Below, one piece after another: positions 27,553-58,506 of a stretch of 64,000 nucleotides of DNA. The notes under the pieces were generated by a model that was not told where the DNA came from, did not search any database, and saw nothing but the letters and a program-made list of their open reading frames with translations. The position numbers were made by a program, and so were the translations under genes. Numbering within the stretch: position 1 is the first letter of the stretch; each line of letters starts with the position of its first letter. The DNA is from Stylophora pistillata (lineage: Eukaryota): NCBI RefSeq assembly GCF_002571385.2, contig NW_019217797.1:861856-925855 (forward strand). The letters are read 5' to 3'.

Positions 27553-27813
27553 CTTGATGAGAAGTTTGGGCTGAAATGCCACTACATTGTTCACTTAATT
27601 GAGAACTAAACCGGCAAAACAAAAGAAATATGAACTGCAATATATATCTTTTATAAGGAACGCATTTTCGTGAAACAGGGAGCGAGATGAAATTGGATTG
27701 TGGTAATGATGTTTTTCTCTGTCGCCGGCGCCATTTTGGATTGTGGAGGCATTCAGGCAAATTATTTTGCGCATGTGTCCCACGCATAAATTATGTTAAT
27801 TCGAACTTCGAAC
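27553..27813. promoter_or_regulatory. Bidirectional CpG-rich promoter region CDK12/13 <-> YAE1
   Basis: Start codons lie 261 bp apart and diverge. YY1-type motifs point outward (AAAATGGCG on minus at 27729-27737; AACATGGCG on plus at 27811-27819). An NRF1-like TGCGCATGTG lies near 27768. Confidence 0.7.
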
Positions 27814-29772
27814 ATGGCGGATGTGATGGACGAACAGGAAGAGGTGTTTCAGGATATGGAATATACAGATATGGACTACAGAAAGATGAGACAAAGTCAG
27901 GAAGCGGTAATATATATCTTAATGGTGCATTAAAAACTAATTCCTAAATTTGGTTGATCTAAGAAAGTTAGACAAATTCTCAAAGTCATAATTTCCAATT
28001 TCCCTCGTTCCTGACGTTCCAAATGTCCTTGGAGGTGGAAACCCGGCTATTACCCTGGCTGATGGGACATCTCTATGCTGAGAGGAGATTTCTTACGTTT
28101 TCAAAGGCTCCCTCAGAATGATGGTTCGCTTTTATGTGGCTCTATATTCTGAGGGCTCAGTATCAGTATTTCTACACCCAGCCGATTTCTCTTCAGTTGG
28201 CCCGTTTGTTCTCGCTCTTTTCCTTTTTCTCTTTCTGTTTTCCCGCATTTTCCCATCGTTTCCAAGAGTACATTTTCAGGGTAAGTAGCTTTGGTACGTT
28301 ATAAATTTAGTATTTGCATTTCACAGACGGGTTATCTGATGGCTCAGGACTGCAATTACATTATGATCATCTGATGCTAACTAAAAAATAAGGATGTGAT
28401 AATCCCTTAAATATTCCTATTTCCATCGAATAGTAGATTCTTGGAATATGTTGCCTGTCGACATTCGCACTGCAAATTGTTCTGGGAATTTTAAATTTAA
28501 AAGTGAAGAAGTTTCTTACGGCTAAATCATGATTTTATTTTTCTTTATTACAACATAGTATCTCATTCGCACTATATATATATAGGGTGATCTGCTGTTA
28601 CATGGGGTCTGGGACTCTTTTGCAGATTCTCCTTCTGGCATATTTTTTTTTAATTAATTAACTGTATCATACCTGCACCTGTGTATTTCTGCCATTAAAT
28701 TGCTATAAATAAATAAAAATAAATGCAATTGCAGTGAGTTATATTATTTTGATGCACTTTTCAATAACAATCAAATCATGATGTTGGTGATACAGAATTG
28801 AAATTTCGATCGTTTTATGCTGCAGTCAAACGTGTTTCAGACCTGTTTTCCAACCTCTTTCCTGAAATTTGATCAGAGGACTTCAACCCTTTCTTCTATT
28901 TGCTTTTAGATGTCTGCTACAGTAATGAATAAAAGGAACATGAAGCAAAATACCATGTTTGGCTCTTTATCTCAGAATTTGCATCTTAATGAAGGGTGCC
29001 TTGGAATAAAAATGTTAATTTTTTTTTTTAAGGCTGGGTACCGTGAGGGTATGGAATCTGGAAAGGAAGCCAGTTTACAACAAGGTTTCAATGAAGGATT
29101 TATTTTTGGAGCCAGTGTTTCAAGGGAATGGGCAAAGCTTAGAGGAGTCTTGAGGTAAATCATGTCCATACATATCCTTAACAATATCTTTAAGTCGCTC
29201 TACATCTTCACTTTACTCATTCTTGTTATTCATACAACAGTGCTCTGATGTTATTTGCGAGTTCAAATTATGTGCAAGATCCTCATCCAAACATCACAAA
29301 TGAAATCACAGAACTACTTGCAGTGGTCTGCCAAATGGAGAAGGAAGCTTTAAGTGCCCAAACTATGCAAGATCCTATACTGGACCAAATGAACCCACAA
29401 GGTCAATGTTCTTTGAAAAGTTCAGAAACTGGAGGTGCCTCTCTTACTCATCACAAAGTGGGAACTATGAACAGAACTGTAAATGAACATGAATTATTGG
29501 CAGCATTTGAAATGCTTGGTACACAGGATGGCATTACTAATGGTATAATAAAAGATTTAAGAAGTAGATGTAAGCAAAGTAAAGACAGTGAAGGAGAAGG
29601 ATGTTCCCAAGACTCAGTTATGCCTGAAAAATCCTTCAACTGTAACCAGCCTCTAGTGGAGACATCTAAGATCAAACGTAATGACATGGAACATTTGTGG
29701 ACTAAGATTGTCTCATTAGCTGATAGAATTGGTGTCAATAAACAAAAAACACTTGATTTGAAAAACATTTAA
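27814..29772 (+). CDS. YAE1: YAE1 maturation factor of ABCE1 (Yae1 domain protein), 3 exons
   Basis: Exons 27814-27906, 29033-29154 and 29241-29772 are in phase. The GX3-repeat motif AGYREGMESGKEASLQQGFNEGF..G...WAKLRGVLSAL is the Yae1_N signature. Confidence 0.9.
28435..28723 (+). mobile_element. 3' fragment of a non-LTR retrotransposon in YAE1 intron 1
   Basis: WNMLPVDIRTANCSGNFK motif typical of CR1/L2-group ORF2 ends, followed by a 3' UTR and (TAAA)n tail. Confidence 0.55.
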
Positions 29773-31490: not shown

Positions 31491-34400
31491 TCACTCAAAT
31501 GCTGGGAACTTTGATGAGTGAGGTTCCAGTATATCAGCTAAGAAGTAAACTGTGCCAGCCATCCCTGGAAAAACAGATTATTAACTCCAAAATGAATAAG
31601 AAATGTTATTAAAAACTAATTGGATTTTTGATTTCCCAAATTACGTACCTTTCAAGGTCTAAAATGGAAGGTCAATTGGTCTGGTACTAATCTTCGGTCA
31701 TCAAAAGTAGACAGTATACACTTCTCATTAATTTACTTAATTCTGCTTTGTCAAACCAAGATTCATAGAGAATCCAATCCATGCCTCCAAGACTATTATA
31801 TTCTAAGGGCAATTACCATGAATGGATAAATACCTTACTGTCCAGTTGTTCTCCAGTCCCACCACATCACATGTAAGTACATTTATGAAGGGTGCAGAGG
31901 AACAAACCTAGCAGCAATAATCTATCTGAATGATACATGTAGATGCAACTCATGTTAACCTACCCTCAAACAATGAGTAAGGGCGGTCTGGAGTGCGACA
32001 ACCATGTTCACCATAATCAAAACACCATTCTGCAAACTAAAACAAAAGTATTAACAGTAATTAAAACAATTTTTGCCTTGTACAAGTTATGTGGCCAGGT
32101 CACTGTGGGTCAAACCTGAATAACAGTGTTTGCATGCAGTTGAAATTTTTTTGTCAATTGAAACTGGCCTTAGAGAACACTATACCAGCCCTATAGAGTC
32201 CTTGTTGATGGTGAACTGGTCTTCAAAAATCACAAGCTTTACCAGCATTCCTGCCTGTTCTTTTATAATAAATTTGTACCTCACACCAATCAGTAGTGTT
32301 CAAAGCTGCAACCTACCTTCAGGGCGTGGTGGAGGTACCTAGAATCTCCAGTCTGCTTGTATAAACACAAAAAAGCATAAGCATTCCCTGCTACACCATG
32401 GCATATGCCATAGCCTTTCTTTAGTAAACCTCGCCTCCAAATTACATCTCCACACTTAACAGCTGCACTCAAGTACTTGTCTTTTCCAAAGACCTGTTGG
32501 TAATAATTTGCACCCTCAAGTGTAGCAAGATAGTTTCAATAACTTGATATAATTAGGTTAAAAAAAAAACAAAAACAAACAGTTGAGGTCAATTGAGATG
32601 AATTTACCTGGTATGCTTTGACCATAAGGTGGACTGCCCCAGGAGCTCCATGGCACCAGTGGATAAGCTTATCGGTGTCATTCTCAAGAGAGGAGGGAAA
32701 GTTACCAGATGAAAACTGCTCTGACATAAGAAACTCAACACAGCTCTCGATGTTTCCCAAGTTAGATTTTACTGAATGGGTTGACAAAGTCTTGCAATTC
32801 GTAAAAAGATCAATATCCAAATTAATTTTTGAATATTTTTTATCTTAACATCAATTCTTAGTTTCGTGTTATAAAGATTATGGGCAGATTGTGCTACATA
32901 AACATACCCAATATAAGCATTGTTAAAAAGAAAAAAGTTATATACCTTTAGAAAAAAGAAAAAAAAACAGCTGTCATTTCACTTTTGATATGTCCCTCCC
33001 TCCCTGGAATGCCGCTACAATGGCACTTTCCTCTGTTTCCAAGCTGGCCATTGTAGAGAGAATTAAGTTGATTAAATGGATTTCAGGAAAAAATTATGAG
33101 ATCACCATTATAGCAACAATAGTGTAATTCTAGGAGGCAAAGTCATGCTCACTTGCAGTAACATGAACAGGATTCCAACAATACCATGTGCTGCACCAAC
33201 ATAATGTTTGTGGTGCCATGTGTACATTAAGGGTGATCTGCTCCTCTCATGCTTTGCAAGCCTTTCACCAGAATCTAAAATAGCTTGACAGACCTACAAT
33301 GTCATGACAATTCATTAGAATATACTTTTTTCTCAAAATTATGGATATTACTAACACTCTATTTCATTTATTCATGACTTTACTAAAATGAGGTTGTCAA
33401 GCAGAGTGGTTGAGGGGCCTGACTTTTACTTTGATTGGTTAGTCTAGTATCCTACATTGCTAGATTTTTTCCTTTCCCTAAGTTCAACTCTTTTGCCCAA
33501 CTCTGTAAAAAGGTGGCTGATTGGGTTACATGGCAGTTCACTACAAATTCATCTTCATCACTTTTGGAGTATTTAATTGTATAATTGTTTTCCTTGGCCC
33601 TAAAAAGCCCTATCTGTGAGTGTGGCCAATAAGGCTTACAGTTGTACTTCAAAAAAAGGTAAATTACATACTTTAAAGTTTTAAAGTTGACAAAAGTTCA
33701 GTCGACTCTTACAACAAAATGAGCAGGTAAATATAGATACAATGAGTGCAGACAATATTCAATCGATCTGCCTAGCCTAACAGAAGAATACTATCGATGA
33801 GAGTCCATGTGAAGTGAAAAGATGTTTAGTAATTACTCTGACTAGTGCAATTTGTGACAGTTATTTCAGTCTTCTAACCCATTCAAATAATTTTGAGGCT
33901 TCAGTGTCCAGAAACTTCTAAGATACGCCAGTTGTCTATTATTAAGGCATTAATCAGATATGATGAATAAATGAAGTTCATATATTTTGAACTGCGGTTA
34001 TAGATACGTATGATGCACGATCCTCGCAGTAGAGAGCCCTACTTATGCAATTAATCTTAGATACGCGTAGTTCATGTACCCGTATCTCCTCTACAATGAT
34101 ATCATTTCTAGGATCACAAAAAAAACTGAGAAGTTTATAAACTAATCACCTGGTTAATTGTACTGGCACTAATTTTCTCTTCTCCCAAGTGCTTTTGCAC
34201 AAACAGCAATGAAAATAAGTACCCTGCTCGACCATAAAGCACCTCATCAGGAAGAGAATGATCTCTGCACACATTATCTGACAGACTTAATAGCTTGTAG
34301 AAACATTTCTCACTCTTGTCTTTCAGACCCATCTTTGAATAAAGAACAGTCAGCATAGAGAGGACACCTAATCAGATAGAAATCAAATAGAAAATAATCT

Positions 34401-35565
34401 TTTCCCCCTGCTTGCTTAATATAGATCATTACTAATAATTAATTATCAGTATTACTTCACATCAACAAGATTGAATTTAATTTACCACTATTTAAAGTGA
34501 ACCCACCATCTCTCTTCTCCCCTGACCTCTCTATCCCTCATCCTAGTGGATTGGGGACAGGAGGGACCCTGGGAAGGAGGTTATTTTTCTGCACTCACAG
34601 TGGTACCTAATCCAATTTGGTCAGGGATGAGTTTGACTAATGGTCGTGGGTCGTGGGTACAAGTCGTGGGTGTGGGTGTGGGCGTGGGTAAAAGTCGTGG
34701 GTGTGGTTAATACTTAATAATAAAAATAACCATTTAAAATATTAAATATAATAATACATAAATTTTATACAACCCTGTCATTCATTAATTTAACTGTTCT
34801 TTCTTCTAGTTATTTTATTTTGTTTATTCAATTTACCCTACTTTACGTCTATTTTTATCTGTTATCTCACTGTCAATGAAATTAGTTTCAGTTTCGCGAC
34901 GCATTCCGAGATCTCGTTTGATAACAAAGGGAAGAGAGATAAATCTTGTAATTACACACTGTGTACACGTTTTTCGAGCTGTGCGGTCTGCGGTCTGCGT
35001 TNCTTTGTGTATACAGTGTGTAATTACCAGATTTATCTATCATTCTTTTGTCATTGATGTTGTCAGACGAGATCTCGGAATTTCTGTTCCTTGGCCCCTG
35101 ACTTTAGCCGCAAATATAGAATTCACGAGCGCTGTCGCAATTTTAACGTTATAGTACTTCTACTATATGAAATCATTTTTGGTACAATTGTACAAAGCAA
35201 CGCGGGTGTCTCGTTAACACAGACCTTGAAAACGCAGAACTCAGACCGCAGACCGCACAGCTCAAAAAAAGTGTACACAGTGTGTAATTGCAAGATTTAT
35301 CTCTCTTCCCTTTGTTATCAAACGAGATCTCGGAATGCATCGCAAAACTGAAACTAATTTCATTGACAGTGAGATAACAGATAAAAATAGACATAAAGTA
35401 GGGTAAATTGAATAAACAAAATAAAATAACTAGAAGAAAGAACAGTTAAATTAATGGATGACAGGGTTGTATAAAATTTATGTACTATAATTATATTTAA
35501 TATTTTAAATGGTTATTTTTATTATTAAGTATTAACCACACCCACGACTTTTACCCACACCCACG

Positions 35566-35602
<37 letters not shown>

Positions 35603-38233
35603 ATTAGTCAAACTCGTCAGGGATAACTTTGAGTGATAACAGAGGTAATTATGGTCAGTGATACATGATGCACTTGACTCTACTACTAATGATCAGAGCT
35701 GAAACTGACTTCACAACCTATGGTAAATCTAACCACAAACTGTCAGAATTCAAAATCATTTTGTTATGAGTTTGATTGCAGTACAGAAATAAATGAGGTT
35801 TAAATCGACTTCTAAATGAACAGATCAAATATTCTTTCCATTGATAGATCTCACCTGAATCTCCACAAATAAATGTCACCCTCTTCCCTCTTAGACTATG
35901 CTGGCTATGTTCAAGGATTTTCAAAGCCTTCTTTAGACATTCCTGCTTTCCACTATCCTCTTCCTTGAAAAGAGTGTTTGACAAATGCATCTAAAGAAGG
36001 GCCATACCTACAAAAAGAAAACAGAAACTGATAATGGAACTTTTTCTCTTTATCACATATCTGTACGTACATTTTGCCAACAAGTAGTTATGAATTTTTT
36101 ACGGTCATATACATAATTCCTCAAGGAGTTATACGCGTTAACTGTTATCCTACTTTCACATGTACAAAATATATATATCTTATTAACCAAGCGCGAGNNN
36201 NNNNNNNNNNNNNNNNNNNNNNNNGACTGAAGTTCAAAGGGACACAAGTGCGGTATCATTCGGGACCATTCGGGACAGTGCCCGGTCCAATACTTAGAGA
36301 ATATTGACCGGCAATAGAGCATTTTGATTGGTTGATTTTAGTTATTGGCCCTCTGACTGCCCGAGTCGTGTAATAAATTTAATATTTTGCATTGCAATGT
36401 AATACTTTAACTCACCTGCAGCACCTGTGTAGACAGAACAATCACGATCATCTTTGCTGCGCTCAAAACCTTCCTCACATTTTTTCAACAGTTTTCGAGC
36501 TTCACCTCTTATCCTTGAGTAAAAAGGCTCACTAATCTACTGACAAGAAAAGATTAGTGAGCAAGAAAAGGAAAGAGTTCCATATAGCCCCATACATTAA
36601 TTATGCATTCATTTCATATAGACTAAATATAAAGGTTTCTTTGCAACACTCTATGCATAATTAATGTTGGGGGTTGAAGCGTATCCAACGAGGGAAAAGG
36701 TTTCAATATCTTTACAACTCACGAGCACATGGCATTACTTGACAACCTCACAACAAACGTAGGGGGAGACTGGAACCAATACTACTCAGTCTCTACAAAT
36801 ACACCACATCTCCCCCTTTCTTGGACCGAGCTACCACGGAAATAACAACGAAGAAATGGGTCCGAGAACATAGTTCAAACAGTCCATGTAAAAACTCCAA
36901 CATTAACTAGAAATGTCTGATGACAACAGTTAAATGTACGGAAGTCCCAGCCTTACTTCAGATAGACTCTATTAGTCTATCTGGAGCTCTTCGCCCCCTG
37001 GAAGATCGGCGAAACTGGGTGGGGGCCGCTTCCACGAACTGGGGAGGGGCCGTCGCTGGTGCCTCCGCAGTTACTGCCGGTGTTACGTCCTGCTTTTGAT
37101 CCTGAGCTGAATCTGTTTCAGCTGATACACCTTCTTGGGTATCAGGTGGTACCTGGGGTTGTCCGGAAATATCCGACCTGACCGGAATAACCCATGGAAC
37201 CTCCAAGAACTTCAACATCCTCAATCCTGACTGGGACCTTAATAGCGGGGGTTGAGATCTCTGAGCCCTGTATTTTAGCCTGGGACGATTCATTTACGCC
37301 GAGAATAGCACCGAGGAATTCATCTTCAGTTCCCTCTGGATCCTGATCTCTGTGGCGCTGCACNCGCACGTCCCTGCGAGTTTTTTTAAAGTTCGCACAT
37401 ACTCAGAGATTGACTGACTTGGTTTTTGACAAGCTGAGTGGAACCGATATCTTTCTGCTACCGTCAAACGCGTAGGCCTAAAATGTCCACGAAGGAGTGT
37501 CGCCAGCTGATCAAATGTTTTCGTGTTGGGGGCATCCGGGAACGCTAAATCTTTCAATACTCTGTACGAAGTGCTCCCAATCGACGTCAGTAAGATCGCC
37601 CTACGTTTGGCTGCGTTATCCTCATCATCATTGATGTCATAAGCCGTGAAGTACTCTTGAAGACGCTCCAAATAACTCTCGATGTCTTCGGTTTCAGCGT
37701 CGAACTCGTTGAAAGGAGGTCTGCCTGCCATTCTCCCGACACTTTCTTCAGTGAAATGTAGTCGTTTGGACTTCTCGAACGTATTTCCGAATAGCTCTAC
37801 GCTGGACAGAGTTGCCTTTAAAGCCCACGCATGGGTTTTGGGAATCCTCGTCGCCACTGAAGCTTATTCAACGAGGGAAAAGGTTTCAATATCTTTACAA
37901 CTCACAAGCACATGGCATTATTTGACAACCTCACAACAAACGTAGGGGGAGACTGGAACCAATACTACTCAGTCTCTACTAATACACCACAGGGGTTTTA
38001 TGGAACTCTTGCCCATTATAATCGCCAACCTTTTTGGTACATTTGTAGCACAGTAGTTAATGCTGACTTTCACAATGGGAATTTTACTATTTCTTCGGAA
38101 CTCTTTTTTTTTTTTTGGTAAGCCAATATTCCATGTCATATTTACCTACCTTGCCATCAGAACGCTGCAAAATTGTCTTTCCGTCATAATCCTCAAATGT
38201 GTTCGCAAAATACCTCCTCTCTGAGCTCGACAT
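31491..38233 (-). CDS. LANCL2: LanC-like protein (LANCL1/2 co-ortholog), 9 exons; in-frame TAG in exon 3 in this assembly
   Basis: Exons 38233-38150, 36536-36416, 36007-35855, 34367-34150, 33293-33153, 32790-32608, 32493-32317, 32036-31964 and 31564-31491. Motifs SVYTGAAG, TFICGDSG, DEVLYGRAGY, YVGAAHG, HWCHGAPG, GICHGVAGN, RTPDRPYSLFEGMAG and FPAFE. TAG at 35993-35991. Confidence 0.92.
34629..35615. mobile_element. Foldback / Mutator-like element with about 370-bp TIRs and 9-bp TSD
   Basis: TSD GTCAGGGAT at 34620-34628 and 35616-35624; termini GAGTTTGACTAATGG...CCATTAGTCAAACTC; subterminal GTCGTGG/GTGGGT repeats; near-identical arms. Confidence 0.9.
36675..37991 (-). mobile_element. Gypsy LTR retrotransposon with short LTRs; pol missing in the assembly
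   Basis: 134-bp LTRs at 36675-36808 and 37858-37991 (TG...CA, 5 mismatches), 5-bp TSD GGGGT, PBS TGGCGACGAGGAT, PPT GAAAGGGGGAGA. Gag reads YLERLQEYF...AERYRFHSACQKPSQSISEY, and the integrase tail reads RRSSRGRRAPDRL. Confidence 0.93.
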
Positions 38234-39260: not shown

Positions 39261-42200
39261 ATGGCCTCTGCAGGTGATAGCAATGATCCAACAGATATCA
39301 ACGGTGTTTTGGAAAATTTGGGAAGCTTAATTGGTGAATTGGATGCATGTGTCACAGAAACTGGTGGAAAGGTTAGTACTGGTTCAAAGCCTTATTTCTT
39401 TCTGTCCAAGATTCCTTGTGGTCAGTCATATCCTCAGTGGTCTTTTAGGTTTAACTAGATGTTAGCCAGGAAAGTTATATGATACTCAGTATGTGTTACC
39501 GATAGCTCCTCAAGTGGAATAAATCCAGACCTAGTGGGTCAATACTACTTAATAAATATATCATGATCTCACATGTATTTGATTTAAATTTTGTCTTACA
39601 TTTGCTCAGTGTGTGGTGAAATAAAGGATACTCTTTTGCTCCTTATTGTCATGAGTTAAACTATTTTTTTTTTTTAAATTGTAGGCTGTTACCAGTGAAG
39701 TGGAAGACAATCAAAATTGTAAGTGTTGGACCTTTCACTAGAAATGTGCTTGATCATAGATGTCCTAGTAAGTTAAAAAAATGTGATTCTGTTTTCTTCA
39801 TTACAGTTGATGTACATTTGGAGTCCTTGCTAGCTGACACAGATGAGTTTGATGATGATGATGATGAGTATCAGTGTCTTATTCCTCATCAAAGATCATC
39901 TTCACACAGAACAACGACCAGTATCATCAATCACACTCATAACAAGAGCCCAATGGAAAGAGCAGTCAGTTCAACTCGTACTTTCCCCCAACAATCACTT
40001 AATTCAAACTCTGGCTCTATAAACAGGACACAGGAAAACCAGTACTCCACTCCACCAAATAGGAGTAGTCATAAGGGTGCTTCCAAAGAGGTTGCCCTTA
40101 GTGTAGAGTTGCATGGAAGTTTCAAACGAGTCGATGAAAGTTCAGTTACTGCTTCAGCTCAGAAGAATGCCACACCCAATCACAATGCAGCTCCCCATGT
40201 CAAAGCGCAGCCTAATCATTATGTTGGGCCCAGTGAACTTGGTTTTAATAGACACAATCCTGCAAAGTCTGGTGCTACGACAAACGGAATAATGCCCTGC
40301 AGTCAGCAACTCACAAAACAAGAAAAACATAAAATGCAGGTGACTAGTTTGAAATTATAGTCATTATATCAAGTTGCATTTGTTTTTTAATTTCATTGTC
40401 ATTTTTTCTCAAGACTCTTTCCCCTTTTATTCTTCATTCTTGACTAAATGGAGTGTTATCCATATCAGGTAAAACCAGATAAAATATGTTATTTAGAATT
40501 TACATCCTTTAACTGCTTAGAATCCTTGGCAACAGATAATGTGGTACAGGCAGTATATAGCTGAATGTAGGAGTTGTTTTTTTTATTTAAAAGGTCAGTG
40601 CAGTGTGATCCCAAATATTTTATCCATCCACCTACTTTTCTCTCCTTTTATTGATCCAATCATTGTTGGAGGTAGACTTGCTCACAAGTCGCGCTTCTGA
40701 GTGCGTAGCACGACAGTAAGCGCAAAGTGCAAGCGAGCGAAAGTGCGACTTGTTTCCCTTGCAGAGTTTCACATCAAGGGACGTCATTTTGGTGCAAACT
40801 TCTGCAAGCGCTGCCTGTCAAACTGTTAACATACTTTTTGCACCTTGCAAAATTGTTCAATGGTTTGGTAATAGAGGAGGAAACTACACCAACTAAAACT
40901 TTTATTCGGGTTGCTGTACCGGAAAACATTTGAAGAAAATCTGGAGTTACGGAGAAAGTTGTTTTCAGGGAAACAGAAGACCAAAACTTGTCAAAGTCTG
41001 GAGCTTCTTCTAGGAGATGTTTTTCCGCGAGACAACGAATTGGGAACTATTAAATTTGCCGAAACTGCTCGCAATGCAACGAAACGCAGACAAAGAAAAA
41101 TTTTCAAGTTAGGGCTAACTTTTCTGGACCAAAAGGAAGTCTAGGAAGCAATTTGCAAAGCTCTGTCAGGGTAAAGCGCTTAACAAAAGCTGAAAGAGCT
41201 GAGGTACCCGAACAAGGTGTGATTAGGCAAGGAGCTTCAACAAAGAGAAAAGCTTTATTTGCAAGTGAAACAGATTTAGCTTTGTCAACTGGAGAAGAAG
41301 TGACTAGTGCTGACCCAGATCTAAAACCTCTTCTCGAGACAAGAGATGCCTGTACGCAGACAGAGCCTTAACTCGCAAATACTGAAGAAAAGAGCTCAAC
41401 AGTGACGTATTAAAGTAAATTTCTCGCCTTTGAATTTTCACGACTATGTAGTTTGGCTGGATCTCGCATTATTAGCTAATCCAAGTGATTTGAAACTGTG
41501 AAGAGTAATATGCCTATTTTAAGAAAACACAACAAACTATAAAAATTAAAAATGACAAAATATACATAAACAAACAGCGAAGCTAAACACTCGAAGCAAA
41601 TTTTACCCAGACAGGTTTCATGTTTCAAGATCTTGCACGCGTGATCTGTTTGATTGAGGTGCGGTTTGATAAGGCTGCTTCTGATTGGATAAAATTACAG
41701 GAGGAAAATTCCTCCTGTAAATTTGGCACACTGCAAGGGTTAAAAGTCGTTCATGCGAGTCCTACCACACCAGAACAGAAAACCAAGCGAACAACTTTGA
41801 GAAAGTCTTATGTTGGAGGATGCCTGAAATGGGGTTCTGTGGCCTTGTTTTAGGAATTTACCAGCCATGATGGTTATATTCTACTTATGGACTGGTTATG
41901 CATATGAATACCCCAGTTACCCACTCTCCACTTATCCAGTTAAGTTAATTAGCAGCAAGTTTTCCATGTTTTTATTTTATTACAGCATGTAACAGTGGTA
42001 GTTTTTGATGAGGATGGCAATCCTGTTGGATTGGAAGTTTCATCCTCCATGAAGGCTCGTGAAGCCTGTTACAGGTTAACAATGTTAAACAAAGTTGAGG
42101 ATGATCCTCAATGGGTGCTGACAGAATATCTGACGGACCTAGGCATTGGTAAGTTACATCAAGTCTGCTCGTGTTAATTCTCTCCCAAGTATGATTTAAA

Positions 42201-45200
42201 AAATTACTGAAATGAATAATAATGGTGAATAATTTATTATAAATACCTATGCCAAAATTAATGTTGGTCAATAGATAGATTAATAAAAAATTTCTAAAAA
42301 CAATTCTTGTAATATCAGAGTCATCCCTCTGGTGCCTTTTTATGATGACCAGTAACAAGTTCTGAGGAGTGGGTTGTTTCAGATATCACTGGTCAGATTT
42401 ACCAACACAGTGTTTGGCCATTTTATTGCTAGCTATCAAATGTCTTGCAGGTCCCAATGAATTCAATATAGTTAAAGCTGATAATTTTTGAGCCTTGCTG
42501 AACTCTATGTTTTTTTTTCTCTGTTATCCAGAGCGAACCTTAGAGGATCATGAAAATTTGATGTCCATATTGAAAACATGGGCACCAAGTTCAAACAACA
42601 AGTTGATGTTTAGAAAAGACCCTAGAAAGTACCATTTCTTCGCACACACAACTGTAAGTTGACTTCTATTTAATATAACCACATATAGGATTATTACTAG
42701 AAAAAAATCAAAACGTTTTATTACACTAAGCCCCCAAGCTCTCACCACCTTATACAAAAACTGTCAATTAGAAATGGAACTTATGTTCAACTATTTACAG
42801 AATTATTTTCCATCACATTTGTTGGACTCTGAGAGTTCAGACAAAGCAGTCACAGAGAAAGCACAGAAGGCAAAGACAATCTTACAACAGGTAGATACTG
42901 TTCTGTATTTCTTGTACACAAATATTATTCCAGACTGCACCGTTGCATTGAGTAGACAGTTTCAAACTTCTGTTGCAGTAGTAATTTGATTTATTTTCAG
43001 TTTTAAGTGTATCAAATACTTTTTTTTTTGCATATTACCAATACCTCCAGTGTTTTTTCAGTTGCTTGTATATATATTGTACTGGGCCCAGTTGTTCAAA
43101 GGCCGATTAGCTCTAACCCAGGGTTAAATTTTAATCCAGGTTTCTAAATTTCTCTAATCAAAAGCCATTTTGGGATAATTTTTCCTAGTTTTTTTAGGAC
43201 ATTCCATCATCAAATTGTAGACAAATGAAATTAAGCTGAATTTTCTTTCAGAGCTTTCAGATCTGAAATCAAATTTCACACTAACCCTGGGTTATCTTAA
43301 CACAGCTTTGAACAACCCGGTCCTGGTGTGTACCTGTATCCATTTAGCTAACTAACTTCTTATTATGTAGGGTGACGTGTAATCTTTAAATGAGTGAAAT
43401 AAAAAAATGGTAGAAAAATTGAGCAGAGGACAACCTGACCATTATTGTAAATGATCTGTGATAATCAGTAAATATGAACCAATGAATCATCAGGTAAAGA
43501 TAAAAACCATACAACTTAAACAGGTCAAGACTGAATTAATTGAAGGTTGTTTACTTAGTAGTGAGTAAAACTAGCACAAATATTGGGCTAACAGTACACA
43601 TAAACTATAGTGCTTTATCCAGATAAAACAAATGTGAAGAAACCCACTCTTGGATTCCTTTTTGTTTTCCCATAGAAACTCTTCAGTACCTGTACCAGAG
43701 TTCCAGAAATAGAGGGGATTTTACATTGCAAGGATTTTGGAAAGAAGTCATGGAGCAAGAAATTCTTCTTCCTGAGAGGATCAGGGCTTTATTCTTCCAG
43801 TAAAGGAAAGTCAAAGGTATCACTCACATATTGAAAGCATTGCCTGTTTAAACTTTAATATAATATCTCAACTCATCATTTGAAAAATCATTGTTCAATA
43901 TCTTGGTAGAAAGTCTTCTCCCAGCAAACCCCAAAATTAATGAATGGATGTTCTTTGAAAAACTTTAGAATTCTTCCCTTTTTACTTTTCATGAGACCAT
44001 GCTTTTTATTTTTGTGGATTATTTGTTTTTCAACCAGTAGTCAGAATTATTAAAGCTGTATTTTAAGTAATTATAAATGTAAAGATTAAGTTTTTTTCAT
44101 TTTATTAATTTGTTGACGATAAACTTGGTGTGGCTGAAATTTTCTGCAAAATGTATCAGAAGTCTGTATTTTTTTTCGAAAATTGTCCATTCCAAACTGG
44201 GTTAGCAAAAACTCTTGGGAATATTTTCAGATTTTTTTTGTTACCTGTTTGCCACAACTTGTTTTTGCATATTCTACCACAACCTACTATTTTTCCATTT
44301 CTTCTTTCAGGCCTCTAAAGATTTGGAATGCTATGTTCAATTTGATGGAGCAAACTTGTACAACATTATAAATCCTAAAAAGTTTCATAAAGCGCCAGCA
44401 GAGTTCTGTTTTTGTATTGTGGTATGTATGATTAATTAACATCATTAAATCTCTGTGAGATAAGTTACCTTAACGAAGGGCTTTAGTGGCTCCAAGCAAC
44501 GAAACCAAACAAGAAATAGTACAGTGCTGTAGGACTTACCCTCCCCACCCCCTAGCCATGCTCTGTAAACTTTTCCTTTGTTGCACTTTCCTGCCAGCCG
44601 CACAGAGCCCGAGAGTTGAAGGAGCTGAAGTGTCTTTCCACTGATGATGAGAAAACAATGATGAGTTGGATGATGGCTGTCAGAATAGCTAAGGTTGGTA
44701 ACATTATTTTGTTACAAATGTTGCGTGCAAATTATTAGTTGTGTTTGTACTTTGACCCAATGTAGCCCGTAGTAACGATCCGTTTAAACTCAATTTCTAA
44801 ACTATGACGCTCCTTTTTTGTCATATGATGAAAGATGGCGTCAACACTTAACTAAGATCAATTTCAAAGTCGTTGACAAAGCAGGCAGAGGACGAAAAGA
44901 AACATAATCATGTCAACGATTTCGATATCGAGGGACAAGTTATTCGCACTGCAAACTTCATTTTCAAGAGCAGTGGAGCTATATGACAAGACTAGTCTGG
45001 CTGATTCTCTCTTTCTCACTGATCTGGACGGTGTACGATAAACTGTGTTCCATGGAAGGCTGAAATGTCACACGACATCGGCGGCGCTTATTTGGTTGAC
45101 ACATTGAAATTGAAGTTATTGCATGGGTCATCGGTCTCGTTGGGATGAGTTAAACAGATTATTAGCAGATGAACAACATTTTTTGAGCAACATGAGAAAT

Positions 45201-48200
45201 TCTTCCTTTGGGGAAAAACACGCGAGATGATTACTTAGCCGTGAATTGAGGCCGGATATCTTTCTGCTTGGTGGCTACAGGTCGGTTTTTCACTCATAAG
45301 GTGAACCACACGTGTTTCTTTTTTTTTTTCTTTAAAGAAATTTGTGCATAGAAATCTTGATTGTCTGCCAATAACACGTACAGCTATTTTAAGTGCTACA
45401 CGGCAAACAAATCTTGGAAGCTACTGAGTTTTCTTTTGTGTACAAAGTTTGATGCCTGTACTCTAAGACATAACTTTGACCGAATTTGTTTTATTATTGG
45501 AGGATGTCATCTCATTCTAAAAGAAGTGAGCAGCAGTTCTATTTTAGGCGATTTCATTGTATTACCCTCTGTGTGAGAATAAAAGTTTTAAACGGTTCAA
45601 ATATCACCAAACAGGCTCTCAGAGAGCAGTGTGATACGACAGTGCTGGTTGATCGTTGAACTGGGTCGAAAGTGTCCGAAACTGAATTGGGAATTGAACA
45701 TAATTTGTTTTAAGAAGCGAAATTGATCATGTTTGTAACACATGCACAGAGGTATTAAAGCGATAGAATTTTCTTTTTTTTTTTCAATTGAGCTGCGATC
45801 TCTTAGAGACAAAAGACTTAATCACAACAAAATATAATGTCTTCAATCGGACTTGAGCTTCCCTTAATTACCAAGAATATTTCCTTGAGTCTGAAGATCC
45901 GTGATGTGTATCCTTGAAGTATTGTTTTTATCAAATGAAGGTGCTGTGAACTAAGCTTCAGCTTGAGAAATATTAGAGCACTATTAGCGTATTTTGTTTT
46001 TAGATAAGTTTAGCATCACTCTTGCAACACTCAAATTGCGGTCATGTAAATAAAGCAATAGACCAATACTTGGTCCGACTGTTACGGAAGCGGAAACTCT
46101 TGTGGCTGCGCCAGGTTATTTTGCATGTCTCCTTTTAAGTTCACTGAAGCGTTGTTTTGTCTAAATAAAGAGAAGGGACAGAAATAAAGTCGATTTTATC
46201 CTTTTATGGTGAAAATGGTACTTTTCGCTCATTTATAGGCGTAGTTGCCTTTTTTTCTCCTCAATACTTTGCTACAAGGGTTAGTAGAGGGAACTAACAG
46301 TGATGGCGCCGGCTTCAGCTGTCACACTCACGGCCAGTTGGAGTTCAAAATTAATCTAATTAGGCTGAGTAAAACTTTCTCAATGTTGTCGGACGAGATA
46401 AAAGACTTTTGTAGCCTGAGCTGAGCTTCCTCATGAGTGACGTAAGACATATAATGCTATCTAGGGCGTTACGTGTTACATTTCAGTCGCCACTGTTGGA
46501 AAGACTCCATGGCAGCACAATAAACAGGAACTGGAATGTTTGTTAAGATTTGGCTGTCTTTACTTATTTTCTTTTTCTTTTTTTTTTTTTCTTTTCCTTT
46601 TTTGCCTCCCGTGTAATGTCGCTCTCTAGCAAACCTGGAGAGACACCGATTCTTCTTTAAGGCGAAATGTGGTCCGTATTTTGCTCTCGTCGAAATAAAA
46701 CATTAAAAATTCTGTCTGGCCGCTTTGTTATTTAGACACGTTTATGGCCGCTCTGTTATTTAGACACGTTTATGTGGGAGTCTCTCCTCCCACCTCGCCG
46801 CAGGAAGAATCTTGTTCGGTCACGTTATTCGGCTTTCGAGGATGATTATTAGAACTTCCTTTCTTCTCCAAACAAACAAATGGCACTGTTTCATTGATTA
46901 CTGAGTGTGCGGGAAACCACTAACGTCGTTATTGAAGGTTACTGCTGCGGCGCGCAATCGGTCAGTTTACTTGCTGTCGGTGCCTCGTGAAGTTCTGTCC
47001 ATTTCCCGCATGAAAATGTGAGTGGAATGATGATAAGGTGACCTCTCATTGAACTTTCCATCTATTTTCATCACGCGACGTCATATAGGTTTACTTGCCG
47101 ACTTTCCGTGTTAAACAGACCTCTTATAATTCTCTGTACCTCAAGTCGATCCACTCACAATTTGTATACCAGTGTAGTCTGTGTTGGCATACTCATTACA
47201 TTCGAGTGTTTCGTGAAGTTGTGTACAAGCACTATGGAAGTTGCCGATCACAGTCGAAGAAGCTTTCGGCTAAAGGTAGCAAAGGATTTTAGTGATTTTA
47301 AAAGATAACACAGCTCTTCTGTTACTCTGTTCTCTGTTTTGGTGATTATTACTCTGAAACCTTAATGTGTGTAGGATATAGGCTCTATAAGAGAGGGGAA
47401 TCTCGGAGGAACTTTAAAAACAGTTTTCTTTCTAGCCATGATGTCAGTTTTATGCGAAGCCTGTTCGAGGCGTTTAGTTCATTATTCCACAGGGTCGTGC
47501 CTTTTCGACTTTACTATCGGTTCTGTCTTAAAGTTTCGTAGCTCTTTCTCTCTCGTGCAAAACGTCGCAGGCCAGCCCTGTTTATCTGCTCGTAGCTGTC
47601 TTCTGAGACTAGGCGGGCAAACCTCTGAAAGTAAGGATGACTACTCCCTAACATGTAGATAAATTAAACTGCAGGTTTCAGTGGATAAGTAAGGTACTGT
47701 AACCTGCTTATGGGACATCTTTTGATGTTGCCGTTACTTTCTACGGCGATAGCTTCGTTCTCTTGTAGTTCTTTGTTTTCAGTAAAATTCACAAATCTGA
47801 GTTTAAAAAGGCGTGTTTCGATTTGCACAGACTTAAGGTACAAGTAGACGGCGCCATCAAAACGTTTATAATGTTTATTAGTCAGTGTTCACCACGTGTG
47901 TGTCGTAGTTTTCATTTACAGTTGTCTGTTAGAGAGAAGTTATGAAAACAGATTTAATTCTACACTCCTTAATCCGGTCATTATCCTATCGTGCCTGTTG
48001 TTAGTGTTTCCTTATCTGTCGCGAGACAGCTTTGCTCGCTGGTCACCCTCCTACGTCAGGAGTATGACGTATGAACTCATTTACCCCTCGTTACTTCAAG
48101 ATATTTATTGGACCCTCCAAACTCTTTCTCAACTTATCGTTTTTCCTCTTAAGATAAGAAACTGAGATATTTTCAGATAATTTTCTTGAGCTAAGAATTT

Positions 48201-51200
48201 CTGCATTATTTGGCAAGATCCACGATAATTGTCGTTCGAATGTCTTCAACATAACTGATGACTGTCCCACTCCAAGAAAATCTCATTGTGCAGTTTTTAG
48301 TCTTTCTGTGTAGTTTTAGATGTTGGTGTTGTATGTTATTACAAGCAAGCAGTTATTGAAACTCCAGAATAGTGGTAGAATCAATTCAAGCATAACCTGA
48401 AACATGCAAATTATAAAAAAAGGAAAGAAAAGGACAGTGTATAAATATATATTATTGTTTGGAGGTTAATGGAGTGTAACAGATAGACATCAAAGGAAAT
48501 TTACTAGACAGGCCCTAACACGAACTTCTACAATGATTTCTCTTAGTTTGGACCTCAACTCCGCCAAAATTACGACGACATGATACGAAAGTTTGCCAAG
48601 CTAACGAAGTACCGTGAACAGAGTTCGGAAAGTCAGGTAAGTTGTCTGTTTGTCAGAAGTATTTTGAAACGATCATAACTTTCCTTTACGACGTCTGCAA
48701 GACTAATTAAAAAAATCTGACTCTAGTTCAGCTTCCTTTTATTCGCTAAATGTACATTGCGCTTAACGTGTAAGGTCTTTTTTAAAACTCCAATTTGAGT
48801 TTAACACATTTTATTGTTTTGGAAATGGCCCAATGTCAAAGTAGTCTTTAATTAAGATGTAGTTCTTTTTAATTAGCAGCTTATTTGCCGCGGCTTTTAA
48901 TCAGCGAAAAAGCATTGTTATCTTCTCGGCTTTATGCAAGTACAGATTTAGCCTTAAGAAGTTAAACAAGTAAAAGATGGGTTGACCAAAGTCCCTAACT
49001 AACTATGGGTTGACGAATGTCTTAAATTACCAGTCCAGTATCAGAGAATATGATTCAGCCTGTCCGCATTGCTGCACATAGTAGTATTGATTACACGGTA
49101 AATATATGGCTTTTTCTTCAAGCTGCGGGTAGTAATTCCCTAAGGAGTTGCTGCAAAGATTGCAGTATTTATTAATACATTATTGTGATACTTCAATAAA
49201 ATTGCATTTCATACCATTCTAGTCATTGTAAACTCTTATTAAAGAGATCTCTGTGCTCAATTAGTCGGTAAAAGCTGTTAGAAATCGTAAACTGATATGG
49301 TTTCCATCCTTGGTCTTCCCTTCTCCATAGAGTAGCTAGTTGACGTTTTGGACAAGTGATTTTGTTGTCAAATGGCCTAGAAAGTCTTCGTTTACATTAG
49401 TAACTCTTGCAAGCACGCACACTGAACAGGCACCACACCTGAGATTAGTTTTTTGGACGCAAATGGCTAAAATTAGCCTTATTAAGAAGTAAATAGCTCA
49501 ACAGAAACGTGAATTCTTATTCTAAATTAGCGCTCGCGAGTGATCTTCCTTCCAATAACAAATATTACAACAGTGGTGTTGACACGGACGATACTAATGA
49601 GATCAGTGTCTGGTTGCAAACCTTTAGATCAGGTGTTGTTTTCTTTCATGCGTAGTCTTTGACAACGCTTTTTGGAAATATTTATCCGTCTAATCCCATA
49701 CTTTTCTCTAATAAAGCTGTAGCCCAAAAGGCAATGTATTGTTTTCGCTATTGTTTTAATTATTGAAAACTGTATGCATAATGAAGTATGAGGTTGAGCT
49801 GGGCTGTGCCGAAATCTTGCCGGGTTTTCTTTTTGCTCTGCCATTATTTAAAGCGTTTTAAACTTAAGCGAGTTTTAATCAAATAAAACGAAATCTGTAG
49901 TTAAGTAAAGAAAACAACGAAGACTATGCGGTGAAATTGATGTTTCTCACGCTAAAATGTATAAATATCTTCAATATATTGGAATTGAATACGCTGGAGC
50001 AAGGTTTCATGTCATATCCCGCTTGTTTTGAAATGAAAATGACGTTATGTTTGAGGTATTTCCCTCCAAATATTGCCGCGGTGTTCACATATAATAGGCA
50101 CTAAGCCCTAGAAATGTTGGAAAACTTTTCTTTTAGTATCTTTTGATGTCCTGTGCAGATAATACGGACAAAGACAGAAGGCTTTGTTTTGATCGCTCGT
50201 TGGCTTAAATTTCTTTCCGAAGAAAACTTGCGAGAACTGATAATTCGTTTTTCTCCCAGTCAGAGATATATAATTGTGCTATTCAAGGTAATTATTTGTG
50301 GTTTATTGATTAATTCCTTATGCCTAGTCTTTTCATTTTGATTTCTTATAATAGAACATACTTTTATTATCTAAATATATCAACAAAGTTGAAATGGTAA
50401 ATTGGCCACCGTTACGATTATAAAGGCTGTCGTTTCGGCGTTAGCCCTTCGTTGGAGCGAATTGGAGAATCAATTCTCTAATTCGCTCCGACGAAGGGCT
50501 AACGCTCGAAACGTCAGCCTTTATAATCGTAACGGTGGCCAATTTACCATTTCAACTTTGTTGATGTATTCAAATTATTTCGTTACCCCCACCGACGCAG
50601 CCCCAAACAGTTTCTTTAGAAACTATCAGCCTTTATACTTTTATTATCGTTCTGTACTTTAATTGTTGTACTCTAGGTATTCAAAGTACAGGATTTCATG
50701 AAATGATTAGATATTTTTCTTTCGATTTTCTTCTCGAGCGATCGCTCTTTGGTGACGGGAATGACTCGCTAGGAAAGTTTGAACCTTAAGTTAATGGAAA
50801 ATCTCAGTTTTAATGTACTGAATGGAAATTACTTAAGAGAATTGAGTTACGGTTATTTTCTTGGCCAAGATACGTGTTTAAACCTTTGGTGTTTCTTTGG
50901 CCGAACGTTAGGGTTCTCCAGGTGTTTTTGTTTTGTTTTTTTTGTTTTGTTATTTGTTAACTTTTGAAATGATCGACAATTACTAATAGCAGTGCAGTAT
51001 CAGTTAAAGCTGACAACTTTGAGAAGCTGGGATCTGTTAAAACTTTCAAAGATTCTGAGATGGGGCGCAAACTTCCTCAAATCAAAACCTTTCTGGATTT
51101 GATGCGCCCTTTGCAGATGTTTATTAGCTATCAGAATTCCCAAGACGTTTTGTTTGGGAACCAGCGTGGACCCCAAGTGTCAGGGAACGAAACCTTCGAC

Positions 51201-54200
51201 TGGAAGACTGAGAAGTGAGACGTGCTTGACTGACTGTCGTATAACGCGGGTCATGATGGATAATGAGACAATCATATCTGAAATTTTAAAAAAATTGTAA
51301 TAAAAAAGGAAAACTGGTATAGCTAGATTTATTTTAAATTTTGATAAAAGTAAAGAATTTAAAGGCAGAAAAACTGGAGCTAACAACTAAGATATGATAT
51401 ACATGATACATGTAAGTCGTAATTCAAGTAACAAATGGTCTTCTATCACTAAGATACTGAGATGTATTATTAGCAATATTCAATCGCCGAGATTGTCCAA
51501 TCTCAAAAATTAATTGCGGAAGTAGATAAGGGCGGAAATTGTTACTCTGCCCCGGAACGACTAACATTAGAATGTAACCTCACCGTGACGAAACTTTTCC
51601 TTTAGAATTGAAACGTCTTGGATTTTTCGTAGGATATTTTCTGCCTGCGCAACCCGGGACTCTTTAAAACAAATTTAGCTGTCCCCCCGAGGGAACAGAT
51701 TTTAGGTACATGAGGTAACATCCTATTTCGGATTAGCAATTCCTGTGGCTAAGAATACTGAGAAAATAAGGAATTAATAAGCATCGTTTTGATTTGTAGG
51801 ACGTTTCAAGCGAGAAGGAAGACGAAGGCATGAAAGAAACCACAAGAGAGGGACGAGTTCCAATGGATTTTACCGGTGAAAGAGGAAAAGTCATTACGGA
51901 TTTAAACGAAATCCAACAACTGGCTAACATAAGAAACAACGCAGTACGTGTCAAATTTTATTCTTTGTCATTCGCAAATTTTTTCTTATTTTTCATGTTT
52001 TCTTTCGACTTAATGCGACTTATCGCAGTGATCATTTGTTAAAAAAGAAACTGTGAATATAACGTGAAGCAATTTTGCCGGCCACTAAACTCTTCGTCGA
52101 TTACAGAGGCCCAGAGACCCACTCTATCCAGACTGTAATATAAAGTTTTAACTGTTAATTTGTTTTTGTTTTTCACAGAAACTAAGTAAACGCATGTCAT
52201 CTGAACATTTCATCCCAAACCACACCGTTACCTCCGGTATGTTTAGCATGAGTGTTGCTTTGTCTTATTGGTGCCGACATTTTTACTTTCGCTTATATTG
52301 TATTGGTCGTTTTTATCCAAAGCTTAACGACAAACAACTGGTTTTACACACTTTTATTGAAACTGACGAAGACTGAAGTTCTAGTTTTATGATCAGTTAC
52401 ATCTGATCGCTATCTTGATTATTAAAATGTTGAGTAGGATTGAATCTCTTCTTTTCAGGGCACCATTTTGTCAATGAACCATGGTTTCACGGGAGAATAA
52501 CAAGAGAACACTCGCTTCACTTGCTTGTTGCTGCAGGAATAGACGACGGGTAAGGAATATTACAAGTAATACTCTTTGGAAGCCTTGTTGTCCTGGTACT
52601 GCCTCGTTGATCGCTCGGGGTGGGATGGGTGGGAAGGTGAGATCGCTACATGGACTGAAGCGGCTGCCAGAGGCGCCTGATAATAATGCTGACGTCCGAT
52701 CTCAACCTTACGCGGATAGTGTTAAGCGCGACTGAATATATCCACATAGAAGTCTGCGCTATATAAATGTAAAATGTAAATGTAAATGTATCGGTCGGTA
52801 ACCACGATAATTACGTATTCTTTAAAGTTGCGGGAATAAGAATAATAATATTTAATACTTATAATGCGCTTTTTCTATAAAAATACTCAAAAGCGCATTA
52901 AAATATTAATTGTTAAACCCGATAAAATTACAATATTTACAGTATAAAAATTTCCAGAGTAATTAGTAAAACATAGAATTTTTTAAAAATCTCAATATTA
53001 AATTAAATGAATAAATAATCTAACTAAAAGCCTTTTTAAATAAATATGTTTTAACAGAGCGTTTGAAGGAGTTGATTGATGTTTCCTGTCTTATTGGCAG
53101 AGGAAGACTGTTCCATAAGAAGGGGCAGCTATTGAAAACTCGCGATCTTCCATAGTCTTCTTCGTTCTTAGCCGAGGTCTTTCTAACAATATACCATTAT
53201 TGTTACGGCGTAGTTGATAATGTGAGTCCGGCAAGACAGAGACTAGATCCTTAAGATAGCTGGGCGCAACATCGTGAAGTATCTTAAATGTGACAAGGAG
53301 AATCTTAAAATCTACACGCAAACGCACTGGTAACCAGTGGAGTTCTCTTAGAAAAGGAGTAATGTGAAAATAAATGAAAGAGTGAAAACAAATTGAAGCA
53401 GAATATTTGGAAAATCATTTCTCGATGAATTTATCTCGGTGACATTTGACATCTCAATTTTGCGTGTAAAATCAATTTTGGAAGTATTTTTCGCTGACTG
53501 AGACTTGAAATTTAAATTAATATACGCGCTCATTTCTAATGAGCACCTACATTAATTCTGAATATGATGACTTTGGTTGAAAGCCGACTTTAATTAGCCA
53601 TTTTAGGCTATGGGTTAACAGTTTCAAAGCCATACTTTGAGTGGACAAAGCAATGAGTGCCTCGTTATCTTTTTCAACTACAGGTTGTTCCTTGTGCGCG
53701 AAAGCAGCAGCGTTCCCGGCGTGTTTGTGTTAACGTTTTGCATGAACAGAAAAGTCTACCACTGTCAGCTTGTTGAGGTTTGTATTTGCTATAGTATAAA
53801 AACTGATTTTGATCGATATCTGTTACTAATAGTCCCTGTACACACTACAATAACCTATTGTGAGTGTGTCTGTACAGCCTCAACGGAAAAGAGCTTGCAG
53901 GATGTGAGAAAAGTTTTAAAACAGTCTTTTGTTTAAGCCGGTCAAAGCAACCAGGCTAGTTGTTAGTTGTCTTATTTTACTGCGGAGGAAACTTTTTTCA
54001 TTATTTGAGCTGAAATTGTAACTTACTTCGTCGGTGAGTTGTGAAGAGGCCGCAGCGAAGCTTCGTAAATAGTCGAGTACATTGGATTTGAATTATTTAA
54101 ACATGATCATCCAAACCAGCTGGCAAGAGAACTCAAGTTTATTCTCTCTGTGATCTTACCTGTTATCGATCAATCTGGTGAAATATACAGACATAATATT

Positions 54201-54405
54201 TTTAATTACGTCATGTGATGATTAAAACCTAATAGAGTTATAACTCGTCTTATTTCAGGACATCGGCCAGGGAAGCACAACGTTCTTTAGTCTTGGCAAG
54301 GGACCAGCATTTGAGACCTTGCGTCAACTGATTTACTTTTACCAACAGAAACCAATCAATGGCGTTACTCTGGCCCTGCGCACACCGTGCCCCAAATCAG
54401 GATAA
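39261..54405 (+). CDS. GRB10: Grb7/10/14-family adaptor (RA-PH-BPS-SH2), 15 coding exons
   Basis: Exons 39261-39371, 39685-39718, 39807-40339, 41986-42148, 42532-42653, 42801-42890, 43676-43816, 44311-44421, 44598-44693, 48547-48636, 51800-51943, 52179-52236, 52459-52549, 53684-53777 and 54259-54405 are in phase. RA (W.L.E...GIERTLEDHE), PH (PEIEG..GKKSW..F.LRGSGLY..WMMAVRIAKFGPQLRQNY), BPS (VPMDFTGERGKVI) and SH2 (PWFHGRITRE, FLVRES). Confidence 0.92.
40673..41810 (+). mobile_element. Non-autonomous DNA transposon with 9-bp TSD and short imperfect TIRs (Academ-like, tentative)
   Basis: TSD TGTTGGAGG at 40664-40672 and 41811-41819; termini TAGACTTGCTCACAAGT / ACTTTGAGAAAGTCTTA. The interior is CpG-rich with broken ORF fragments. 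Confidence 0.7.
43085..43322. mobile_element. Harbinger-type MITE
   Basis: CTG|GGCCCAGTTGTTCAAAG...CTTTGAACAACCCGGTC|CTG, with a 3-bp TSD and internal TAACCCAGGGTTA repeats. Confidence 0.8.
50372..50640 (+). mobile_element. Penelope-type pseudo-LTR with about 100-bp inverted 5' duplication and hammerhead-like motif
   Basis: Palindrome at 50372-50573, motif GCTCCGACGAAGGGCTAACGCTCGAAACGTCAGC at 50485-50518, and a 3' part CCCCCACCGACGCAGCCCCAAACAGTTTCTTTAGAAACT shared with 61970-62030. Confidence 0.82.
52600..52790 (+). mobile_element. SINE 3' fragment with L2-type tail and (TGTAAA)n
   Basis: GGGTGGGATGGGTGG module (also at 30190), followed by TAAGCGCGACTGAATAT...GCGCTATATAAATGTAAA repeats. 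Confidence 0.6.
52838..53370 (-). mobile_element. L2-clade LINE 3' fragment
   Basis: HITPFLRELHWLPVRLRVDFKILL.TFKILH..APSYL..FSIAAP..FKRSVKTYLFKKAF, then the 3' stem-loop TAATGCGCTTTTGAG...AAAGCGCATTATAAG and (ATT)n. Confidence 0.85.

Positions 54406-58246: not shown

Positions 58247-58301
<55 letters not shown>

Positions 58302-58473: not shown

Positions 58474-58506
<33 letters not shown>

Follow-up and report, generated by a model that had tools for sequence, protein, structure and literature searches.

Two families of adaptor proteins are among the closest described systems. Grb7, Grb10 and Grb14 have the domain order RA-PH-BPS-SH2, and Grb14 binds Ras via K111, R120 and K140 (PMC3742580), while human GRB10 occurs as 594-aa and 536-aa isoforms that differ by an N-terminal extension (PMC2674303). 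The MRL proteins (RIAM/APBB1IP, lamellipodin/RAPH1 and MIG-10) have the RA-PH fold in common with them. In RIAM, K213 is required for Rap1 binding (PMC8813058), and helix 2 serves both as TBS2 (PMC3605642) and as part of an autoinhibitory segment in which Glu60 and Asp63 bridge Lys213 (PMC8813058; review PMC9250098). Talin-binding LD motifs follow the consensus I/L-D-x-h-h-x-x-h (PMC8260872), the Asp of which contacts talin K1544 (PMC4938799).

The window, the whole stretch of 64,000 nucleotides of Stylophora pistillata DNA that was analysed, contains on its forward strand a Grb7/10/14-family gene with a coding span of 39261..54405, for which a model of 15 exons gave GT-AG boundaries at 14/14 introns and a single open frame of 674 aa. 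The modelled protein is identical at 674/674 residues to P0165, the S. pistillata GRB14-like protein XP_022803560.1, and the gene is thus already annotated as GRB14-like. Coding exon 1 (39261..39371, + strand; residues 1-37) starts with the ATG at 39261 and carries DINGVLENLGSLIGELDACVTE in frame at 39294-39359, whereas FDVHLESLLADTDEF opens with a Phe codon split over the exon 2/3 junction (39718 and 39807) and ends at 39850; both of the N-terminal peptides quoted in an earlier, sequence-only reading of this DNA are therefore present and in frame. The joining of these exons to those coding for SH2, on which that reading depended, is borne out by raw RNA reads from run X23, in which all 14 introns were recovered as GT-AG joints (4 reads for intron 1 and 8 for intron 2), and by contigs from three other RNA runs, in which all 14 were joined as well. 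Furthermore, among the matches listed, 9/13 further cluster members are proteins assembled to full length, in which the two helices as well as the SH2 end are present.

Searched against Pfam, the whole coral protein gave RA, RA_2, PH and SH2 matches above the cut-offs. The RA domain (41986..42653, + strand) occupies exons 4-5, the PH domain and its C-terminal helix (43676..48636, + strand) exons 7-10, and the SH2 domain (52459..54405, + strand; 55 bits), with its FLVRES motif intact, exons 13-15. The Pfam BPS model was matched at 16.9 bits by its exon alone (cut-off 27) and not by the whole protein; the BPS core VPMDFTGERGKVI is nevertheless present at 51857..51895 (+ strand; residues 517-529), and the coral order of RA-PH, partial BPS and SH2 corresponds to that of Grb7/10/14. 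An AlphaFold2 model based on a 112-sequence alignment (mean pLDDT 72.5; a 5-sequence version with a mean pLDDT of 33 was discarded) had both RA-PH and SH2 confidently folded, and the SH2 model matched Grb7/10/14 SH2 structures. For RA-PH, sequence scores placed Grb14 (194 bits) ahead of Grb10 (174 bits) and RIAM (170 bits), with the Grb14 structure 4K81 as the best match, while Foldseek placed RIAM and lamellipodin slightly ahead of Grb14. The coral protein differs from Grb7, Grb10 and Grb14 in retaining helix 1, in the divergence of the second half of its BPS and in lacking the PNPFPEL-type proline motif. This motif was absent in all cnidarian Grb rows and unmatched in several bilaterian rows too, and may consequently be a bilaterian addition. 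The differences from MRL proteins lie in the presence of BPS-SH2, the absence (by inspection and in the AlphaFold model) of the MRL coiled coil before RA, and the absence of a proline-rich C-terminal tail, there being no PPPP run and SH2 standing in its place. No SAM domain is present. The BPS core or a close variant occurs in the cnidarian and most bilaterian rows, and this common core, together with the common absence of SAM and coiled coil, favours membership of the Grb7 family for the coral protein.

The RNA data also indicated shorter products. An exon within intron 9 (47156-47275, coding part 47234..47275 on the + strand) was joined in frame to exon 10 at 48547 by 12 reads with 7 starts in run X23 and by none in the three other runs; it is likely to be an alternative first exon, and would yield an isoform of 221 aa that consists of BPS-SH2 and is devoid of the helices and of RA. 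More short forms are hinted at by a further joint, 45280-48547, and by P0170, a protein assembled at 210 aa. A cassette exon at 44835-45280, 3' of the PH exon, appeared in contigs of two runs with a frame that stops at 473 aa; the transcript would either code for RA-PH with BPS-SH2 missing or be destined for decay. The introns of the coral Grb gene were also examined for an alternative tail of the proline-rich MRL type, which was discounted, no such open frame of at least 70 codons being found.

Helix 1 (39297..39347, + strand; residues 13-29) is the likely counterpart of RIAM TBS1, with Asn14 in place of the LD-consensus Asp. Helix 2 (39807..39850, + strand; residues 49-63), which precedes a long low-complexity linker in exon 3 (39807..40339, + strand), is the likely, degenerate counterpart of RIAM TBS2 and the inhibitory segment, with Thr at LD position +7 and with His and Phe where RIAM has Asp63 and Glu60. 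Ungapped MRL-only profiles were built from those of the 84 MRL rows that matched the pattern, 28 for helix 1 and 56 for helix 2; in coral residues 1-226 they scored highest at the two helices, which stood in the right order. The scores were modest: 7.5 bits for helix 1 (shuffle P 0.028) and 10.5 bits for helix 2 (P 0.002, or 0.012 for the near-identical P0001), with a joint P of 0.0013-0.0027 for both in order. The proposal that these helices are RIAM/lamellipodin-like was upheld to the extent that they are likely to be homologous, although HHalign of the coral against MRL N-termini returned a probability of only 29%, a score attained by 0/200 column shuffles.

A second profile, prepared from seven SAM-type proteins of choanoflagellates and sponges (vide infra), matched helix 1 at 21.8 bits (0/1000 shuffles; decoy maximum 11.5), with the choanoflagellate seeds anchored by a pattern picked after the coral motif had been seen and with the same segments chosen independently by the MRL-only profile in 5/7 of the seed proteins. 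The corresponding HHalign probability was 87%, again attained by 0/200 column shuffles. With this profile helix 1 was also detected in Rhopilema, Glandiceps and Tubulanus and in four further proteins of stony-coral type; the anemone isoforms retrieved and the echinoderm, amphioxus, annelid and GRB10 rows gave no match. Helix 1 is present in 5/5 full-length scleractinian-type proteins, whereas helix 2 appears to be decaying in cnidarians. Helix 1 is nearly invariant among stony corals and about as amphipathic as lizard RIAM TBS1 (moment 0.36, against 0.39), which makes some binding role likely. The 112-sequence AlphaFold2 model placed a helix at residues 13-24 (pLDDT about 60), and left residues 27-94 nearly all below a pLDDT of 50 with helix 2 non-helical. 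A protein-atlas search with residues 1-70 returned no usable feature match, structure matches being meaningless for so short a disordered stretch, and a PDB sequence search with the whole coral protein left the RIAM N-terminal segment unmatched.

Stronger evidence was provided by gene structure. A separate MRL gene was located in the coral genome at G000:C118:417054-431300 (L004-L005), with both helices as strict LD motifs, a coiled coil, RA-PH and a proline-rich exon; its product groups with Nematostella and bilaterian MRL proteins at 100/97. Its helix 1 is shorter than that of RIAM and preceded by a long acidic run. With the RA exon as query only the coral Grb gene and this MRL gene were recovered, and with the PH exon the MRL gene was the one other clear locus, a third match (C347) having an E value of 0.68. 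Directly 5' of its helix-2 exon the MRL gene has a 34-nt exon of phase 0-1, and a linker exon of the same length, phases and position is found in the Grb gene (39685..39718, + strand). Intron positions and phases are common to the two genes through RA-PH, where exons of 122, 141 and 111 nt are equal in length. The coral Grb protein resembles MRL proteins in the presence and order of its N-terminal helix pair, and its gene resembles the coral MRL gene in the 34-nt exon and in the positions of the RA-PH introns. Isoform pairs of a starfish and a fish Grb protein diverge immediately ahead of helix 2, an indirect indication that this exon boundary exists there too. This gene structure is stronger evidence of homology than the MRL-only profile and HHalign scores, as is the choanoflagellate/sponge match taken with the shared exon; on order, profiles and the 34-nt exon combined, the coral helices are likely homologues of RIAM TBS1 and TBS2.

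The existence of a separate MRL gene means that the Grb and MRL families had already split in cnidarians and, since this gene has both LD motifs intact, the coiled coil, RA-PH and a proline-rich tail, that the coral Grb gene is not their undivided ancestor; the suggestion that the protein keeps a pre-split ancestral form is in this respect not supported. Grb-like and MRL genes were also noted on equal-sized contigs in two amphioxus assemblies (2,654,524 and 17,176,021) and in Nematostella (22,031,953), the pairs being P0198/P0220, P0019/P0022 and P0011/P0034, which suggests an old Grb-MRL linkage after local duplication.

Proteins that combine the features of the two families were found elsewhere. 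The homologue set was the best 150 of 772 RA-PH relatives from an HMMER representative search, word-indexed searches having given just 10 matches, the named ones all cnidarian. Within those best 150, Pfam assigned SAM, RA and SH2 to eight proteins, and PH to seven of the eight; by inspection all eight have both helices and the MRL coiled coil, and in none of them was the BPS core found. Five are from named species: the choanoflagellates Salpingoeca urceolata, S. infusionum and Microstomoeca roanoka and the sponges Oscarella lobularis and Sycon ciliatum, and in these three choanoflagellates and two sponges the order is SAM, helix 1, helix 2, coiled coil, RA-PH, SH2. The SAM-type proteins resemble the coral protein in having the helix pair, RA-PH and SH2 in one chain and provide its closest helix-1 match; they differ in that SAM and the coiled coil are present, the LD motifs are intact, the RA lysines are kept and BPS is missing. 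The form uniting the two families is found in choanoflagellates and sponges and not in the coral, which is without SAM and coiled coil and has the BPS core; moreover, a uniting form without BPS is one without the insulin-receptor-inhibiting element. The uniting ancestor would accordingly seem better represented by the choanoflagellate and sponge proteins than by the coral gene. A Sycon protein with SAM and RA-PH and without SH2 sits with MRL. Another Sycon protein (P0122) has SAM, the helices, the coiled coil and RA-PH separated from SH2 by a proline-rich linker of 705 aa, and a nemertean protein (P0032) has RA-PH-SH2 and helix 1 without BPS. No treatment of the SAM-helix-RA-PH-SH2 architecture was found in the literature on evolution covered, in which subscription papers were few. 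Surveys of SH2 evolution and of Monosiga may already list the choanoflagellate RA-PH-SH2 protein.

In an RA-PH tree with a choanoflagellate-type outgroup, the cnidarian Grb clade (100/96) was sister to all other animal rows (94/81, unstarred), and so fell outside MRL plus bilaterian Grb. However, a constrained clade of cnidarian and bilaterian Grb was 6.7 log-units worse and not rejected (AU p 0.177), and the RA-PH + SH2 tree had a polytomy at its base. Phylogeny, which the sequence-only reading had put forward as a check, thus leaves Grb monophyly tenable, and these trees cannot decide the base of Grb/MRL.

As regards talin, no match to the LD consensus, strict or relaxed, was found in coral residues 1-226, and the consensus was present in 0/8 cnidarian Grb rows, whereas it was present in 9/9 SAM-type rows and in 3/3 of the MRL rows tested. 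Coral helix 1 resembles the LD motifs of DLC1, paxillin, CDK1 and RIAM TBS1 in being acidic and amphipathic and in placing hydrophobic residues at positions 0, +3, +4 and +7, but it has Asn or Ser for the Asp, and helix 2 has Glu for the Asp in addition to the Thr at +7. The surface of the potential partner is conserved: a coral talin exon aligned ungapped with talin-1 1491-1544, and all the R8 LD-box residues named in PMC4938799 were kept (L1492, R1523, K1530, V1540, K1541, I1543 and K1544), as expected because the coral MRL gene needs this surface. The talin gene lies at G000:C675:59000-84400 (L009-L012), with the R8 helix 2-3 exon at L011:220-381.

The Ras/Rap contacts, too, are lost. The coral RA domain has Val231, Val240 and Leu260 at the positions of Grb14 Lys111, Arg120 and Lys140, and Leu260 is also the position of RIAM K213, where K or R occurs in 84/84 MRL rows. 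Basic residues at the K111, R120 and K140 columns were counted in 1/8, 0/9 and 0/9 cnidarian Grb rows respectively, as against 78/80, 79/84 and 84/84 MRL rows and 18/26, 20/27 and 19/27 bilaterian Grb rows. The RA stretch concerned is 41998-42087, and its Ras-binding basic residues are lost across the cnidarian Grb-type proteins examined. The coral RA domain is hence likely, on these substitutions, to be Ras-blind, a condition that may possibly extend to the whole cnidarian Grb lineage. Both acids and the lysine of the RIAM bridge are lost from the coral Grb protein, while both sides of the bridge are mostly preserved in MRL, choanoflagellate, amphioxus, starfish and GRB10 rows. A missed LD consensus combined with the loss of the RA basic residues makes a Rap1-dependent recruiter of talin unlikely, and both features argue against the RIAM-type integrin/talin activation suggested for the protein at the outset.

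Helix 2 is in fact better preserved in several other Grb proteins than in the coral. Against the MRL-only profile, GRB10 of Carassius (21.1 bits) and Varanus (17.6 bits), together with amphioxus (17.9 bits), starfish (22.8 bits) and crinoid (18.0 bits) proteins, all exceeded the 10.5 bits of the coral; GRB14-like and GRB7-like rows, so labelled by resemblance, were without it. A short carp isoform begins at the Met that ends the helix-2 motif, and the N-terminal extension of human GRB10 presumably contains the same motif. No description of GRB10 with an LD motif, an amphipathic helix or talin was found in the main texts covered, few of them from subscription journals, though an LD-motif prediction table could list GRB10. 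The statement that vertebrate Grb7/10/14 proteins are not described with such helices hence holds for the literature covered, but not for the proteins themselves, fish and lizard GRB10 retaining helix 2, which would be an overlooked candidate binding site.

Taken together, these data make it reasonably probable that the coral gene codes for a derived cnidarian Grb7/10/14-family adaptor, likely to act as an RTK brake, the helices of which are likely to be worn relics of a pre-animal ancestor shared with RIAM and lamellipodin. By analogy with Grb14, SH2 would attach the protein to phosphotyrosine of an activated receptor, the groove in which the kinase takes its substrate would be occupied by the BPS core, and the PH domain would keep the protein at the membrane. 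The RA domain appears to have lost the usual Ras/Rap binding; with that loss there would be no Rap1-driven recruitment of talin by the coral Grb protein, and the task would fall to the MRL gene. Helix 1 would most likely dock weakly by joining a partner's helical bundle as an extra helix; that partner could possibly be the talin rod, a minority expectation, and otherwise FAK FAT or vinculin. Helix 2 would be decaying in cnidarians while retained in deuterostome Grb proteins and GRB10. The corresponding partition of the ancestral protein would have left MRL with the helices and coiled coil but no SH2, and the Grb7 line, after losing SAM and coiled coil, with a newly gained BPS.

A surviving pre-split lineage, in which the protein activates integrins through talin recruitment and binds receptor kinases as well, would account for the first-branching position of the cnidarian Grb clade in the RA-PH tree (unstarred), for a helix 1 nearer to the choanoflagellate form than to RIAM and as amphipathic as lizard RIAM TBS1, and for the retention of all seven named R8 LD-box residues in coral talin. 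It is nonetheless unlikely given the intact separate MRL gene, a domain content (BPS present, SAM and coiled coil absent) unlike that of the SAM-type ancestors, the departure of both helices from the LD consensus and the loss of the Ras/Rap contacts. A marginally better, though still improbable, case can be made for helices that act in cis, one of them folding onto the now-hydrophobic former Ras face of RA and keeping the protein closed in the manner of the RIAM inhibitory segment (PMC8813058). In favour of such docking, the coral protein has lost the bridging acids and lysine together and presents Val/Val/Leu on that face; however, the aromatic part of the inhibitory segment, coded for by the 34-nt exon, is lost in the coral Grb gene, and the absence of an ordered helix 2 from the AlphaFold2 model (residues 27-94 mostly below a pLDDT of 50, considered for confidence and secondary structure only) leaves cis docking unsupported.

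That the helices are generic acidic leucine-rich stretches, LD-like by convergence or chance, is the least probable of these readings and one already weakened. The motifs are short, with scores of 7.5 and 10.5 bits, the two profiles cross-match each other's helices, residues 1-70 gave no usable protein-atlas match, and helix 1 is missing from the anemone isoforms retrieved; yet chance would have to explain helices in the same order and position within one gene family, an identical 34-nt exon with identical phases in the MRL paralogue, two HHalign scores attained by none of 200 column shuffles, and the helix pair in choanoflagellates and sponges. A wider extension of the relic reading is offered tentatively: the RIAM helix pair may predate animals, as part of a single choanoflagellate adaptor (SAM, helix 1, helix 2, coiled coil, RA-PH, SH2) through which phosphotyrosine and Ras/Rap were linked to talin. 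After the duplication the helices may have remained functional in the Grb7 line, helix 1 in a hemichordate, jellyfish and corals and helix 2 in the long isoforms of GRB10, which would give a receptor-kinase inhibitor an overlooked isoform-specific talin/FAK-binding or Ras-autoinhibitory switch.

The coral gene alone is of moderate significance, being annotated already and having the more degenerate copies of the helices. The GRB10 and choanoflagellate leads weigh more, the helix in long GRB10 isoforms being the most testable. Two well-studied adaptor families would acquire a history in which one pre-animal protein with both toolkits was subsequently partitioned. Were the long-isoform helix of GRB10 to bind talin, FAK or its own RA domain, insulin/IGF signalling would be linked to adhesion and the isoform differences explained. 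The question is also raised of whether cnidarian Grb proteins are Ras-blind.

The remainder of the window contains several further genes which, from their translations, we take to code for a CCA-adding enzyme (13338-15839, + strand), a Ral GTPase (17267-17782, + strand), a CDK12/13 kinase (20211-27594, - strand), a YAE1-like protein (28910-29769, + strand), a LanC-like protein (32293-35990, - strand) and NTF2 (57379-58960, + strand). An open frame of ~150 aa occurs in two similar copies at 3907-4313 and 5783-6289 (+ strand), the former being interrupted by a change of frame. Likely mobile-element remnants were observed upstream of the Grb gene and in its introns (36961-37863, - strand; 41054-41368, + strand; and 50393-50659), that near 50400-50640 being a very high-copy inverted repeat in the RNA data.
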